Of a stretch of DNA of 64,000 nt, positions 25,033 through 59,591 are shown piece after piece (the stretch's first letter is position 1; each line of letters starts with the position of its first letter). Source of the DNA: Stegostoma tigrinum (lineage: Eukaryota); assembly GCF_030684315.1 (NCBI RefSeq), contig NC_081357.1, positions 20,276,255 to 20,340,254 on the forward strand, in the 5' to 3' direction. The position numbers were made by a program, and so were the translations under genes. The notes beneath the pieces were generated by a model. That model was given only the letters and a program-made list of their open reading frames with translations, searched no databases and had not been told where the DNA came from.

Positions 25033-25255
25033 GGATGTCAGAGGCAGGTTCTTTACGCAGAGAGTTGTGAGAGCATGGAATGCGTTGCCAGCAGCAGTTG
25101 TGGAAGCAAGGTCATTGGGGTCATTTAAGAGACTGCTGGACATGTATATGGTCACAGAAATTTGAGGGTGCATACATGAGGATCAATGGTCGGCACAACA
25201 TTGTGGGCTGAAGGGCCTGTTCTGTGCTGTATTGTTCTATGTTCTATGTTCTATG
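25033..25255 (+). mobile_element. 5'-truncated 3' end of the same young CR1 family
   Basis: Matches 59371-59591 with 6 differences counted by eye (all transitions), including the (TTCTATG)n tail. Confidence 0.93.
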
Positions 25256-35689: not shown

Positions 35690-36570
35690 GGGATCAGTGC
35701 CGGGCCCCTAATTATCTGTGATATAGATTCATGACTTGGATGATGGAAGTGAATGCTAGTGTCACAAAGTTTGTGGATGACACAAAAATAAGTAGGAAAG
35801 CAAGTAGTAAGGAAGACACAAAATCTACAGAGGAGTATGTAGGAAAATGTACAGAAGAAAGTGGAGCTGAATATTATTTAAATAGAGAAAGTGCGGAAAG
35901 CTCAAGCACAAAAGGATTTAGGAGTGCTTGTGCTTAAATCAAAGAAAGCTCGCATCCAAGTAATAGAGAAGGCAAAAAGAATATTAGCATATGTTTCAAA
36001 CAGGATGGAGTGTAATATTAGGGAAGTTTTGCTGAAATATTCAAGGCTTCTTTTAGGCCCACTCATCTGATGAAAGCTTTACTGGCATTGGAGACAGCCC
36101 AGAGAAGGTTCCCTAGATTAATCCCAGGGTTGGAGAGATTTTCTGATGAGCACAGGTTGAATATGTTGACCACATGCTCATTGGAGTTTGAGTTGAAGAT
36201 TGAGTGGTTACCTTATTGAAATATAAAACACTGTTAGTGGAATTGACAGAGCAGGTGCTGGGAGGTTGTTTCCTTTGTGGGGGCAACCACGACTGAGGGC
36301 ATAATCCCAGATTAAGCGGGTTGTCTAGTTAGGAGAGAGATGAGGGGGAATTTCTTCTGTCAGAGAGTATTGAAACTGGAATTCTTGTCCATAGAGGGCT
36401 GTTGAGGCTGCATCATTAGGTCTATTCAAGGCTGAGATGACTTCTTTTATCATAAAGGGATTTGAGGTTGTGGGAAAAAGTCAGGAAAGTGAAATTGGAA
36501 TTATTAGATCATTGAATGGCAGAGCAGACTCAATAGGCCGAATAGCCTATTGCAGCTCCTCCATTGCATG
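35690..36570 (+). mobile_element. Degenerate CR1 RT C-terminus and 3' end
   Basis: cagggatcagtgcgggccccta (PQGSVLGP-like), KFVDDTK, and 3' end gcagactcaataggccgaatagcct. Confidence 0.8.
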
Positions 36571-45799: not shown

Positions 45800-46672
45800 C
45801 AGCTGCAGATGCTGGAGAATCTGCGATAGCAAGGTGTACAGCTGGATGAACACAGCAGGCCAAGCAGCGTCAGAGGAGCAGGAAGGCTTCAGAAATCAGG
45901 GAGGGGAAGGGTGTTCTGAAATAAATAGGGGGAGAGGGGGCAGTGGATAGAAGGTGGATAGAGGAGAAGATAGCTGGAGAGGAGACAGACAGATCAAAGA
46001 GGCGGGAGTGGAGCCAGTAAAGATGAGTGTAGGTGGGGAGGTAGGGAGGAGATAGGTCAGTCCAGGGAAGACAGACAAGTCAAGGGGGTGGCTTGAGTTT
46101 AGTAGGTAGGAGATGGGGGTGGGGCCTGAGTTGGGAGGAGGGGATAGGTAGGAGGAAGGACAGGGTTAGGGAGGTGGGGACGAGCTGAGCTGGTATTGGG
46201 ATCCGGTAGGGGGAGGGGAGGTTTTAAAGCTTGTGAGGTGCTACACCTGCCCCTACACCTCCCTCCTCACCCCGAGCCCAGGTTTCAAGAAGACTTTCCA
46301 CATCAAGCAGATGTTCACCTGCACATCTGCCAATGTGGTATACTGCATCTGCTGTTCCCGTTGTGGCGTCCTCTACATCGGGGAAACCAAGAGGCTTGGG
46401 GACCGCTTTGCAGAACATCTACGCTCGGTTCACGCTGAACAACTGCCCCCCCCAGTCGCAAACTGTTAAACTCCCCCTTCCATTCTGGGCCTCCTGCATT
46501 GCCACAACGTTGCCACCTGAAGGTTGCAGGAACAGCAACTCATATTCTGCTTGGGAACCCTGCAGCCCAATGGTATCAATGTGGACTTCACCAGCTTCAA
46601 AATCTCCCCTCCCCCCACCGGATCCCAAAACCAGCCCCTCCTCCCAACTCAAGCCCCACCCCCATCTCCCTC
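45800..46672. mobile_element. Penelope-like element: inverted 3' repeat (-, 45800-46230) fused to a GIY-YIG endonuclease fragment (+, 46233-46672)
   Basis: CYTCPY...FTCTSANVVYCICCSRCGVLYIGETKR..DRFAEH is a PLE-type GIY-YIG with CxxC. 46110-46238 and 46585-46672 are reverse complements of each other. Confidence 0.85.
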
Positions 46673-47975
46673 CTAAAGGGAGGGAGGCAATACGTAAGAA
46701 ATTACAGACCAGTTAGTTTATCATCTGTTCTTGGCAAAGTGTTAGAATCAGTTATCAAGGAAGAGATATCGGGACATTTGCAAAGTCGAAACACTATCTG
46801 TCAGCATCAGCATGGTTTTATGAAGAATAAATCATGTTTGAGTAATTTGCTAGAATTCTCTGAAGCTGTAACAAGCAAAGTTGGTATTGGGGATCCTGTA
46901 GATGTAATATGTCTGGTCTTCTGGAAGGTATTTGATAAGGTGCCACACAAAAGGTTAATTCACAAGGTTGGATCATATGGGATTAGGGGTAATTTATTAC
47001 CTTGTACAGGTGACTGGTTGATGGACAGAAGACAGAGAGTCTGTCTGGATGACAAGAAGTAATTAGTGGGGTGGCACAGGTCAGTCCTTAGAACCCAGTT
47101 ACTTACAATCTACATTAACGACTTGGGTTAGGGAAAGAAGGCTCTATCGCCAAATTTGTGTTTGACACAAAAATAAGCAGGATGGTGAATTGCGATGAGG
47201 AAATAAAAACCTTACGAATGGATATAAATAGGTCAGAGTAGGCTAAACTGTGGCTGATGGAGTTTAACATGGATAAGTGTGAGTTCATGAGTCACAGAAA
47301 ACTAACACGCAGGTACAGCAGTTAATAAAGAAAGTGAATGGAATATTGGCATTTATAGCTAAATGAATAGAATTGAAAGGCAAGGAAGTATTGTTGTAAC
47401 TATACAAGGCATTGGTGAGACCACACCTGGAACATTCTGCACAGTTTTGCTCTCCTTATTTGAGGAAAGATGTAGTGGCATTGGAGACAGTTCAGAAGAT
47501 GCTCACTAGATTGATCCCAGAGATAAGGGATTTGTTGTATGAAAAGAAATTGATCAGTTTCGGCCTATACACTCTGGGATTAGAAGAATGAGGGGAGATC
47601 AAATTGAGGTATTCAAGATGATAAAAGACATGGAAAAAATAGATGTGGAGTGGATGCTTCCTGTTGTGGGGCTTTCTAGGACGAGAGGTCATCGTCTTAG
47701 GATAAGGAGGAGCAAATTTACAACAAAGTTGGAGAGAAACTACTTCTCCCAAAGGTGGTGAATCTGTGGAATTCACTACCCCAAAGTGCGGTTGATGCTG
47801 GGACAGTAAGTAAATTTAAGGAGGAGTTAGACAGATTTCTAATTGGTGATGGATTAAAGCTTTCGGGAGAAGGCAGGAAACGAGGTGAGGAGCATATTAG
47901 CCATAATCGAATGGCGGAACAGACTTCAATGGGCTGAATGGCCTAATTCTGCCCCTAAATCTTATGAACTTACGA
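46673..47975 (+). mobile_element. Degenerate CR1 RT and 3' end
   Basis: NYRPVSLSSVLGKVLE...QHGFMKNKSCLSNLLEF...FDKVPH; 3' end gggctgaatggcctaattctgc...cttatg. Confidence 0.87.
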
Positions 47976-51404: not shown

Positions 51405-51890
51405 GGAGCCATGTATGAATAAGCAGTGTCCATGCCAAACATAATCCCAAACTACACTAGTCCCACCTGCCTGTTCCTGGCCCATTACCCTCTAAGCCTT
51501 TCCTCTTCATGTACTTATCCGAATGTCTTTTAAACATTGTAGTTGTATTATCAACCACTTCCTCAGGAAGTTCGTTCCACATGCAAACCACTGTCTGTGT
51601 AAAAAAAGTTTGCCCCTCATTTTTTAAAATTTAAATCTGCCTCCTCTCACCTTAAAAATGTGTCCCCTAATCTTGAAATCCCCCATTATAGGGAAAAGAC
51701 AACTACTATTAACTCAATCTATGCCCCTCATTATTTTATAAACTTGTATAAGGTCGCCTCTGAACCGACACTCCGGTGAAAAAAGTCCCAGCCTAATACA
51801 GCCTTTCTTTATAACTGAAAACTTCCATATTTGGCAACATCCTGGTAAATCTCTTCTGAACCCTCTCCAGCTTAATATTACCCTTCCTAT
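51405..51890 (-). mobile_element. CR1 3' fragment, antisense
   Basis: Reverse-strand ORF2 C-terminus and UTR; shorter similar pieces at 28375-28570 and 60840-61010. Confidence 0.72.
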
Positions 51891-52587
51891 AGCTTATGTG
51901 ATCCAGCCTCATGTGATTTCAGACCCACAACAATGTGGTTGACTTGCCTTCTGGAATGGCCTGGCAGTTCAAGGGCAATTAGGGAAGGGCAAGAATGCCA
52001 ACAATCTCCACACTTCATTATTTGATCATTCATCTCTGGTTACTAAATCTGCTTCAATTGACCTTTGCAACTTTGAAGCTGGAGTGAAACTATGCCTTGA
52101 GCACGTTTGAATTTTATGATTCTATAGTTATGACTTCTGTAAGTATAATTGATGCAGTGTTTCATGGTACCTCGAAGGTCACTGACTCATTTTGCTCGCT
52201 CTGACATGCATTAGAACTGGACTCCCAGCCAGGAAACCAACTGGACTACTTGCAAACTAAAACAGAAAAAGAAACGAGAAAGGGAAAAAACTAATGGACA
52301 GCATGAGAGTTTAAAACATGCACAAAGCACAAAACCAAATTGGGAAGAAATCCAGATTGGATGGTGCATGTGGTGTGGGCACTGTTGTATTCTTTGTGTA
52401 TTAAAGGCTAATCCTACACGTGGGCAATCCATGAACTTTAAATGTTCTTACATACAACAAAGAGCGCTGAGAGTTTTGGCACTGTCACATTAATTGTAAC
52501 TTAGTAAAAGCAATTACTTGGGAGGCTTAAGGCATTCCATTTTCATGAACTGTATCTGTCGTGGTACAGGCTGGGCTTTATGTTCCT

Positions 52588-55981: not shown

Positions 55982-56075
55982 TCTCCTCGATATCTTTGCT
56001 ATCTAAAAAGCTGTTTATTTATGACCTACCAGAGGAAGCCATAGTAGTCAGTTCTCTGGCACTGAGCCTGACACT

Positions 56076-56615
56076 GTGGCAAAGAAGGGAAGGGGGCAGA
56101 ATAGAAAAGTACTCGTGGTAGGGGACTCGATAGTTAGGGGAATCGACAGGAGATTTTGTGGTCAGGATCGAGATTCCCAGAAGGTATGTTGCCTCCCTGG
56201 TGCCAGGGTCCGGGACGTCTCCGATCGGGTGTATAAAGTTCTAAAAGGGGAGGGCAAACAGCCAGAAATCGTGTTACATATTGGCACTAATGATATAGCC
56301 AGAAATAGGATTGAGGATATAAAAAGTGATTACAGGGAGTTAGGATGGAAGCTGCAAAGCAGGACGAACAGAGTAGTGTTCTCTAGTTTACTACCAGTGC
56401 CACGAGATAGCGAGGCGAGGAACAGGGAGCGGGCGCAGCTTAACACATGGCTACGCAGCTGGTGTAGAAGGGAGGGCTTCAGATATGTAGATAATTGGAA
56501 TGCCTTCTGGGGAAGGTGGGACCTGTACAAGAAGGACGGGTTGCATCTGAACTGGAAGGGGACCAATATCCTGGGTGGAAGGTTTGCTCGAGTAGTTCGA
56601 GAGGGTTTAAACTAG
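56076..56615 (+). CDS. CR1 ORF1 C-terminal SGNH/GDSL esterase domain (5'-truncated)
   Basis: All four SGNH blocks present: VVGDSIVRG, PGA, HIGTND, DGLHLN; ends GLN*. An esterase domain in ORF1 is known for CR1-group LINEs. Confidence 0.88.
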   Translation: MAKKGRGQNRKVLVVGDSIVRGIDRRFCGQDRDSQKVCCLPGARVRDVSDRVYKVLKGEGKQPEIVLHIGTNDIARNRIEDIKSDYRELGWKLQSRTNRVVFSSLLPVPRDSEARNRERAQLNTWLRSWCRREGFRYVDNWNAFWGRWDLYKKDGLHLNWKGTNILGGRFARVVREGLN

Positions 56616-59503
56616 TATGGCAGGGGGGTGGGAACCTGAGCTGTATACCAGAGGTGAGAGTTGATGCAGGTGAGGCAGTAGCAAGAGGTAGACCAGCTAG
56701 TGGGAAGGACTTTCCTGGGAAGGAACCAAGGGATCAGTTAAAGTGTGTTTGCTTTAACGCAAGGAGTATCAGGAATAAAAATGATGAACTTAGAGCATGG
56801 ATCAGTACCTGGTGCAATGATGTTGTGGCCATAACAGAGACATGGGTTTCTCAGGGGCAGAAATGGTTGCTGGATGTTCCAGGGTTTAGAACATTTAAAA
56901 AGAATAGGGAGGGGGGAAAAAGAGGAGGGGGTGTAGCACTACTAATCAAAGAGGGTATCACAGCTACAGAAGCTTCCTTTGTCGAGGAAGATCTGCCTAC
57001 TGAGTCAGTATGGGTGGAAATTAGGAACAGCAAGGGAGCAGTCACCTCGTTAGGGGTTTACTACAGGCCCCCCAATAGCAGCAGGGAGATTGAAGAAAGC
57101 ATAGGTCAGCAGATTTTGGAAAAGTGTGGACGTAGTAGGGTTGTTGTAATGGGTGACTTTAACTTTCCTAATATTGATTGGAACCTTCTTCGAGCAGAAG
57201 ATTTGAATGGAGCTGTTTTTGTAAGGTGTGTTCAGGAGGGTTTCCTCACTCAGTACTTTGACAGGCCGACGAGGGGAGAGGCCATTCTAGACTTGGTGCT
57301 CGGAAACGAGCCGGGGCAGGTATCAGATCTTGTGGTGGGAGAGCATTTTGGTGATAATGACCATAACTGCCTCACATTCTACATAGCTATGGAGAAGGAG
57401 AGGATTAGGCAAAATGGGAGGATATTTAATTGGGGAAGAGGAAACTATGACCCGATTAGACATGAGTTAGGAAGCATGGACTGGGAGCAATTGTTCCATG
57501 GTAAGGGCACTATAGACATGTGGAGACTGTTTAAGGAACAGTTGTTGCGAGTGATGAGTAAATGTGTCCCTCTGAGACAGGCAAGAAGGGGTAAGATAAA
57601 GGAACCTTGGATGATGAGAGCGGTGGAGCTTCTTGTGAAAAGGAAGAAGGTAGCTTACATAAGGTGGAGGAAACTAGGGTCAAGCTCAGCTAGACAGGAT
57701 TACACGCAGGCAAGGAAGGAGCTCAAAAATGGTCTGAGGAGAGCCAGGAGGGGGCACGAGAAAGGCTTGGCAGAACGAATTAGTGAAAAGACAAAGGCAT
57801 TTTACACTTATGTAAGGAATAAGAGAATGGTCAAAGAAAGAGTAGGGCCGATCAGGGATAGCATAGGGAACTTGTGTGTGGAGTCTGAGGAGGTAGGGGA
57901 AGCCCTAAATGAGTTTTTTGCTTCTGTCTTTACGAAAGAAACGAACTTTGTAGTGAATGAAACCTCTGAAGAGCAGGTGTGCATGCTGGAATGGATAGAG
58001 ATAGAGGAAGCTGATGTGCTGAAAATTTTGTCAAACATTAAGATTGACAAGTCGCCAGGCCCGGACCAGATTTGTCCTCGGCTGCTTTGGGAAGCGAGAA
58101 ATGCAATTGCTTCGCCACTTGCGAGGATCTTTGCATCCTCGCTCTCCACTGGAGTCGTACCTGAGGACTGGAGAGAGGCAAATGTAATTCTTCTCTTCAA
58201 GAAAGGAAAGAGGGAAATCCCCAGCAATTACAGACCAGTAAGTCTCACGTCTGTCGTCTGCAAGGTGTTAGAAAGGATTCTGAGGGATAGGATTTATGAC
58301 CATCTGGAAGAGCATGGCTTGATCAAATGCAGTCAACATGGCTTTGTGAGGGGCAGGTCATGCCTCACAAACCTTATCGAGTTCTTTGAGGATGTGACTA
58401 GAAAAGTTGATGAGGGTCGAGCTGTGGATGTGGTGTACATGGACTTCAGTAAGGCATTTGATAAGGTTCCCCATGGTAGGCTCATTCAGAAGGTCAGGAG
58501 GAATGGGATACAGGGGAATTTAGCTGTCTGGATACAGAATTGGCAGGTCAACAGAAGACAGCGAGTGGCAGTAGAAGGATAATATTCTGCCTGGAAGTCA
58601 GTGGTGAGTGGTGTTCCACAGGTCTCTGTCCTTGGGCCTCTACTGTTTGTAATTTTTATTAATGACTTGGATGAGGGGATTGAAGGATGGGTCAGCAAGT
58701 TTGCAGATGACACAAAGGCTGGAGGTGTCATTGACAGTGTAGAGGGCTGTTGTAGGCTGCAGCGGGGCATTGACAGGATGCAGAGATGGGCTGAGAGGTG
58801 GCAGATGGAGTTCAACCTGGATAAATGCGAGGTGGTGCCTTTTGGAAGGTCGAATTTGAAAGCTGAGTACAGGATTAAGGATAGGATTCTTGGCAGTGTG
58901 GAGGAACAGAGGGATCTTGGTGTGCAGATACATAGATCCCTTAAAATGGCCACCCAAGTGGACAGGGTTGTTAAGAAAGCATATGGTGTTTTGGCTTTCA
59001 TTAACGGGGGGATTGAGTTTAAGAGTCGTGAGATCTTGTTGCAGCTCTATAAAACTTTGGTTAGACCGCACTTGGAATACTGCATCCAGTTCTGGTCACC
59101 CTATTATAGGAAAGATGTGGGTGCTTTGGAGAGGGTTCAGAGGAGGGTTACCAGGATGCTGCCTGGGCTGGAGGGCTTATCTTATGAGGAGAGGTTGACT
59201 GAGCTCGGACTTTTTTCATTTGAGAAAAGGAGGAGGAGAGGGGACCTAATTGAGGTATAAAAGATAATGAGAGGCATAGATAGAGTTGATAGCCAGAGAC
59301 TATTTCCCAGGGCAGAAATGGCTAACACGAGGGGTCATAGTTTTAAGCTGGTTGGAGGAAAGTATAGAGGGGATGTCAGAGGCGGGTTCTTTACACAGAG
59401 AGTTGTGAGAGCATGGAATGCGTTGCCAGCAGCAGTTGTGGAAGCAAGGTCATTGGGGTCATTTAAGAGACTGCTGGACATGCATATGGTCACAGAAATT
59501 TGA
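56606..59503 (+). pseudogene. CR1 ORF2 (APE endonuclease + reverse transcriptase) with two premature stops
   Basis: APE motifs NARS, AITETW, YRPP, MGDFN, LDLVL, DH; RT motifs NYRPVSL, QHGF, DFSKAFD, GVPQ(V)SVLGP, FADD. In-frame TAA at 58580-58582 and 59258-59260; the three ORF-track segments share one frame. Confidence 0.92.
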
Positions 59504-59591
59504 GGGTGCACACATGAGGATCAATGGTCGGCACAACATCGTGGGCTGAAGGGCCTGTTCTGTGCTGTACTGTTCTATGTTCTATGTTCTA

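Follow-up and report, generated by a model that had tools for sequence, protein, structure and literature searches.

A conserved slippery heptamer and G tract at the ORF1/ORF2 junction of CR1 retrotransposons: a candidate signal for programmed −1 ribosomal frameshifting

The DNA analyzed here, a 64,000-nucleotide (nt) stretch of the genome of Stegostoma tigrinum (contig NC_081357.1, positions 20,276,255 to 20,340,254; hereafter the window), contains a copy of a long interspersed element (LINE) which, judging from its architecture, we take to be a CR1 element. The sequence T_TTA_AAC lies in the X_XXY_YYZ register directly 5′ of the TAG codon that ends the first open reading frame (ORF1), as the earlier note on this DNA had pointed out, and the −1 frame entered there, FKLVWQGGG, carries the APE endonuclease and the reverse transcriptase (RT) of ORF2. 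This frame opens at a TTG (56495) that follows a TAA, and no ATG precedes the APE domain in it: the Pfam match to APE starts at residue 50 and the first Met is codon 182. We predict, with a good deal of confidence, that programmed −1 frameshifting at the CR1 junction would yield an ORF1-ORF2 fusion protein. The observation at the junction is confirmed; the proposed production of an ORF1-esterase/APE/RT fusion by frameshifting is supported, not demonstrated, and the candidate signal spans CR1 elements far outside the lineage of the window.

Homologues of ORF1 were collected by two protein searches, which returned 103 and 65 proteins; the 121 whose end aligns with the end of the query were counted and the other 47 (longer, shorter or broken) were excluded. 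Searches of the shark's own genome were seeded with parts of the esterase without its last residues, to avoid circularity (two of these added no new lineage), and a search of metagenome contigs with the ORF1 alignment gave 51 loci. Among 115 loci and the window, 93 had a match to the ORF1 C-terminus and 86 extended far enough beyond the junction; of the seven that were dropped, L059 and L072 have the exact heptamer and five end ahead of its position. The 86 loci formed 20 clusters at <80 % identity (43–79 % between clusters), from which 18 lineages were retained after two clusters (L074 and L084/L092) had been set aside; these have no heptamer and form a supported esterase clade of their own in the tree, presumably an L2-like one. 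Each lineage was represented by its commonest form, with four of the representatives used for the G tract chosen by hand within their clusters. About seven deep groups are seen among the lineages in the esterase tree.

ORF1 ends in Leu-Asn in 114 of the 121 aligned homologues (76/80 and 38/41), with a variable residue before Leu; the named sources are sharks, rays, a coelacanth, a teleost, frogs, turtles, lizards and birds. The exact heptamer is present in 70 of the 83 loci of the 18 lineages. By lineage, TTTAAAC is found in 16 of 18, the other two reading GTTAAAC (L052) and, in a single decayed copy, TATAAAC (L097). The Leu codon is TTA in 17 of the 18 lineages, whereas TTA makes up 26 of the 206 Leu codons of these ORF1s overall, and the Asn codon is AAC in all 18, against a background of 39 of 87; furthermore, T is the last base of the codon preceding this Leu in 17 of 18 (GGT, ACT, GCT, TGT, TCT, CAT or TAT), spanning six amino acids. 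A control Leu, that of the DGLHL motif a few codons upstream, is encoded by TTA in 1 of 11. The earlier note had proposed a synonymous-site test of the heptamer, and no free variation at synonymous positions was found: the heptamer is conserved past coding need, synonymous codons being avoided, and the putative junction signal is ancient, reaching from sharks to birds.

Apart from copies that carry upstream indels, the site is in register with ORF1 and lies where it was expected. A single TTTAAAC is not rare (24 in the window, 13 on the plus and 11 on the minus strand); what exceeds chance is the conservation of the motif. The junction is also kept in all 30 closest copies (the best 30 of 1760 candidates), one of which, L012, has a Met in the first 44 codons; since these copies were picked by likeness to the query, they speak only against the junction being a defect peculiar to the window copy, and they were excluded from the conservation counts. 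The deep lineage L052 (679–686) combines G_TTA_AAC with a G run 3 nt earlier. According to a review (PMC5009743), U_UUA_AAC ranks with the heptamers on which mammalian ribosomes shift most readily, and G_UU(A) is a natural variant, which the GTTAAAC of L052 matches.

When the sequences are anchored on the heptamer without gaps, a second conserved element is seen downstream. G is found at +11 and +12 in all 18 lineages, at +13 and +14 in 16 and at +15 in 17, and at least four of the five positions from +11 to +15 are G in 72 of the 83 loci. The third positions of ORF2 codons 6 and 7 are G in 18/18 (8.9 expected) and 16/18 (5.2 expected) lineages, respectively. Vertebrate-type lineages commonly carry another G run near +18, which is missing in L053, L055 and L057. 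A search for heptamer-N10-G5 gave one match in the window and no match in any of 100 shuffles. Like the elements of the factor-stimulated type of frameshift site, the G tract is a linear conserved motif some 11–14 nt downstream, and it is likely to be the frameshift stimulator. The earlier note had pointed to a possible pairing of GUAUG.CAG with CUGUAUAC; this hairpin is part of the minimum-energy fold, but its z is −0.79, it is unshared between lineages and it begins only 2 nt past the heptamer. Folding of the downstream sequence, also suggested there, yielded no stable or shared stem, the conserved downstream element being the G tract instead. No stem-loop or pseudoknot was found 5–9 nt downstream with folds that do not model pseudoknots, in a region that is purine-rich, and an Rfam search returned 0 matches. 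The CLPG and YRPP sites were considered as long-range partners and rejected: they recur, but their third positions vary. A G-quadruplex was predicted in 6 of 18 folds; as this is a minority and the second G run is missing in some lineages, the quadruplex is unproven.

The geometry of the frames bears on the same question. In 9 of the 18 lineages the −1 frame is closed 1–5 codons upstream of the heptamer, so that no upstream start of ORF2 is possible there and dual coding does not account for the motif. In 14 of the 18 lineages one member or more has the −1 frame open from the heptamer into the APE domain, the remaining four lineages being cut short or containing stops, and the length of the linker between ORF1 and APE ranges from about 92 to 261 nt. 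The ORF1 stop is TAG, TAA or TGA depending on the lineage and adjoins the heptamer in nearly all of them. In one amplified shark subfamily (L031–L050) the TAG has become TTC and the stop lies one codon later, with the heptamer kept; this form had 301 exact matches and its sister form 108. For another variant, whose stop lies eight codons later, only 2 exact matches were found, inverted on one contig, and it was left unused. L158 and L159 (G000:C9) share a rare junction variant and lie inverted, 2.8 Mb apart, probably as the result of a local duplication. Of the features whose conservation across CR1 elements the earlier note had suggested testing, the heptamer and the −1 offset held up, whereas the missing ORF2 ATG is not family-wide. 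No Met was found in the linker in the window lineage, the L122 lineage (0/9 open copies), L053, L055 and L079, and the window lineage has no ORF2 start codon overlapping or near the ORF1 stop.

The proposed signal has two parts: ORF1 closes with U_UUA_AAC, and the G tract starts 11 nt on. The Leu- and Asn-tRNAs would slip in tandem from UUA AAC to UUU AAA; two-tRNA slippage is favoured over a post-termination slip because the first T of the heptamer is conserved. Ribosomes that do not shift would stop immediately and release the ORF1 protein (ORF1p) with a complete esterase, and those that do would continue from CTA (56612) through the variable linker into APE and RT, so that slippage by a share of the ribosomes would set a low ORF2:ORF1 ratio. 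In the least certain step, the G tract would likely stall the ribosome as a factor-bound linear motif or a G-quadruplex, not as a pseudoknot. The more far-reaching proposition, that CR1 elements across jawed vertebrates and their deeper relatives make a Gag-Pol-like fusion by means of an undescribed, unstructured G-tract stimulator at +11, either recognized by a host protein or forming a quadruplex, is one to which we give even chances; in the G-quadruplex case, it would be a natural instance of a stimulator known to the 2016 review from synthetic constructs only.

The coronavirus ORF1a/1b and retroviral gag-pol sites (U_UUA_AAC, as in infectious bronchitis virus) have the same heptamer, in the same register and at the end of the structural or upstream ORF, and the polymerase is likewise encoded by the −1 frame (PMC5009743). 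In contrast to these, the CR1 junction has no detected pseudoknot or stem at 5–9 nt and a G tract at +11, and its host is a retrotransposon without long terminal repeats (non-LTR). Most −1 sites do have a downstream structure or partner. The spacing is usually 5–9 nt for structural stimulators and 11–14 nt for factor-dependent ones, and G-quadruplexes stimulate in synthetic constructs, their natural use being unknown at the time (PMC5009743). The distance of the CR1 G tract matches the 11–14 nt spacer of protein-stimulated shifting in arterivirus nsp2 and in cardioviruses, both of which depend on trans-acting proteins (PMC5009743); the arterivirus uses nsp1beta and a poly(C)-binding protein, whereas the CR1 motif is G-rich and any factor is hypothetical. 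Among other LINEs, −1 frameshifting has already been stated: the legend in a review says that TRE5-A and TRE3-A of Dictyostelium, APE-type non-LTR elements of a clade different from CR1, both need a −1 frameshift for ORF2 (PMC5911963). CR1 itself has been described with two ORFs, the mechanism of ORF2 translation being unstated in the part of that source covered (PMC11835228), and CR1 is unmentioned in the covered portion of the frameshifting review (PMC5009743). Our literature search found no paper proposing frameshifting in CR1; the classic CR1 papers were beyond its reach and may mention the site.

Several results weigh against frameshifting. The site was defined as the best match to TTTAAAC within a 60-nt window, with the commonest form standing for each lineage, and binomial significance over the 18 lineages is overstated because the lineages are related, seven of them being bird-like. 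Three run X5 contigs, a loose end at window position 56588, read GGT TTA ATT TGA at the end of ORF1 and possibly represent a lineage or a decayed copy without the heptamer. Folding of the 18 downstream sequences (mean z −0.02, consensus energy 0) yielded neither a stable nor a shared structure, and the search for a long-range partner of the G tract found none common to the lineages, the best duplexes being at differing places. An in-frame ATG lies within 10 codons of the junction in 6 of the 18 lineages; the shark lineage L102–L121 (G000) has TAATG, with the in-frame Met at codon 4 in 11/11 open copies, in four bird-like lineages codon 5 is Met, and in L075 an in-frame Met lies just upstream. 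Finally, mammalian L1, likewise a bicistronic LINE RNA, expresses ORF2 independently of a normal AUG (PMC1965478, PMC5009743), although the L1 ORFs do not overlap and their ORF2 protein (ORF2p) is separate, whereas a fusion is predicted for CR1.

Termination-reinitiation of the kind described for L1, in which ORF2 would restart at or near the ORF1 stop on an AUG or another codon, with the heptamer and the G tract as the restart signal, would make use of exactly such codons: the TAATG overlap in one lineage, the ATG 2 nt past the stop in the four bird-like ones and GTG or CTG in several more. The ORF1 stop, moreover, stays beside the heptamer in nearly all lineages, and L1 tolerates any sense codon at the start of ORF2 (PMC1965478). 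Yet 5 of the 18 lineages, that of the window included, have none of ATG, CTG, GTG, TTG and ACG within 10 codons, and reinitiation leaves unexplained why a motif of exact X_XXY_YYZ form precedes the stop and why the offset is fixed at −1; we regard it as improbable. In SART1, ORF2 is reached by UAAUG stop-start coupling and reinitiation, and UGGGA is the core motif of termination upstream ribosome-binding sites (TURBS). The TURBS core TGGGA was rejected as a candidate here, being found within 110 nt upstream in only 6 of the 18 lineages and at no fixed place. The slippery site and the stop-start motif occur together in L102–L121, which is the best lineage for separating the two mechanisms.

Both mechanisms might also be combined, with frameshifting ancestral and the AUG-bearing lineages also, or mainly, making free ORF2p by reinitiation. 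Five of the 18 lineages do have an in-frame ATG, as codon 4 or codon 5, and all five retain the heptamer and the G tract, but these two positions show free variation (V, G, D, A, K, S, W), so that a Met there may be incidental; such mixed use seems to us very unlikely. A non-translational cause, be it protein constraint on the C-terminal Leu-Asn or on the Phe-Lys of ORF2, a splice site, polymerase slippage or an internal promoter, is extremely improbable. Although Leu-Asn is conserved in the protein, synonymous sites would not be fixed by such constraint, and in lineages whose −1 frame closes 1–2 codons earlier, initiation upstream could not reach Phe-Lys. GT follows the stop directly in some lineages, but GT and AG are unconserved, and the runs of T and A are only three long; splicing and polymerase slippage were therefore rejected on sequence. 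TTTAAA is TATA-like, but a transcript starting downstream would lack an AUG ahead of APE in both the window lineage and L122 (0/9). Contigs of 4 of the 22 runs, which are RNA by guess, contain no heptamer indel and no GT..AG joint at the junction, a weak result that we do not treat as evidence, and nothing was found in the viral contigs searched.

Some observations at the junctions of other copies deserve mention. In L074, L084 and L092, ORF1 ends TGA CTG A(C), with an ATG shortly ahead of the stop in L084 and L092; this heptamer-less clade may use another mechanism. Six frame-broken protein models (P0015, P0029, P0043, P0065, P0124 and P0161) read FKL at this place, which equals the −1 reading of T TTA AAC T. 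Two of them, the ray gene models P0015 and P0029, one of which is named a hydroxyacid oxidase 2 isoform, have the esterase, FKL, the linker and APE in one frame; they are probably indel-bearing copies that resemble the predicted fusion. P0105 and P0124 are ORF1 esterases 73–74 % like the shark query that are filed under Pseudomonas aeruginosa and Proteus mirabilis, and are likely host DNA within bacterial records.

The window copy itself (Table 1) is inactive, owing to the 5′ truncation and to in-frame stops in ORF2 at 58580–82 and 59258–60. Its ORF1 misses the N-terminal part because of the truncation; the ORF1 frame is open over 327 codons in the longer copies L155 and L156. ORF2 is open over 965 codons from the heptamer in L155, and in this locus (L010/L155), where both frames are fully open, the first Met of ORF2 is likewise codon 182. 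The nearest named homologue is from Stegostoma tigrinum and is 95 % identical. An esterase ORF1, an APE-RT ORF2 and short tandem 3′ repeats make up the architecture of the CR1 clade, as in chicken CR1 and its relatives, and all are present in the window element. Further RT-bearing LINE fragments are found in the window at 46640–47576, 35903–36186, 51781–51891 and 25033–25255, the last being a 223-nt 3′ end 99.6 % identical to L155.

Table 1. Features of the CR1 copy and its ORF1/ORF2 junction (window coordinates)
Feature	Position	Strand	Basis or remark
CR1 LINE copy, 5′-truncated, dead	56021..59591	+	96.6 % identity over 3572 nt with longer own-genome copies L155, L156
ORF1 remnant, SGNH/GDSL esterase, C-terminus ...REGLN*	56025..56615	+	Pfam PF13472, E 5.6e-14
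ORF1/ORF2 overlap	56495..56612	+	−1 frame open 37 codons upstream of the heptamer here, without ATG
Slippery heptamer T_TTA_AAC (X_XXY_YYZ)	56606..56612	+	Sequence; conservation across lineages
ORF1 stop TAG, immediately 3′ of heptamer	56613..56615	+	Sequence
Out-of-frame ATG, 15-codon frame, neither ORF1 nor ORF2	56617..56664	+	Sequence
G tract (G6, T, G3), candidate 3′ stimulator	56623..56632	+	Begins 11 nt past heptamer; conserved G
ORF2, −1 frame: 44-codon linker, APE endonuclease, RT	56606..59503	+	PF03372 residues 50–249 (counted from heptamer), PF00078
First in-frame ORF2 ATG (MGDFN), codon 182, inside APE	57149..57151	+	Sequence
3′ tail, short (TTCTATG)n repeats	59573..59591	+	Sequence

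CR1 is the main interspersed repeat of birds, accounting for 11.8 % of the chicken genome (PMC11835228), and is abundant in this shark genome too; the mode of ORF2 translation is settled for very few LINEs. If programmed −1 frameshifting is indeed used at the junction, CR1 ORF2 has been annotated with a wrong start and the functional enzyme would be fused to ORF1p. This would change models of how particles assemble and of cis-preference, and the design of a CR1 retrotransposition assay would be guided by the fusion. At 22 nt, the cassette is small enough to be tested directly, and the G tract within it suggests a frameshift stimulator unlike pseudoknots.
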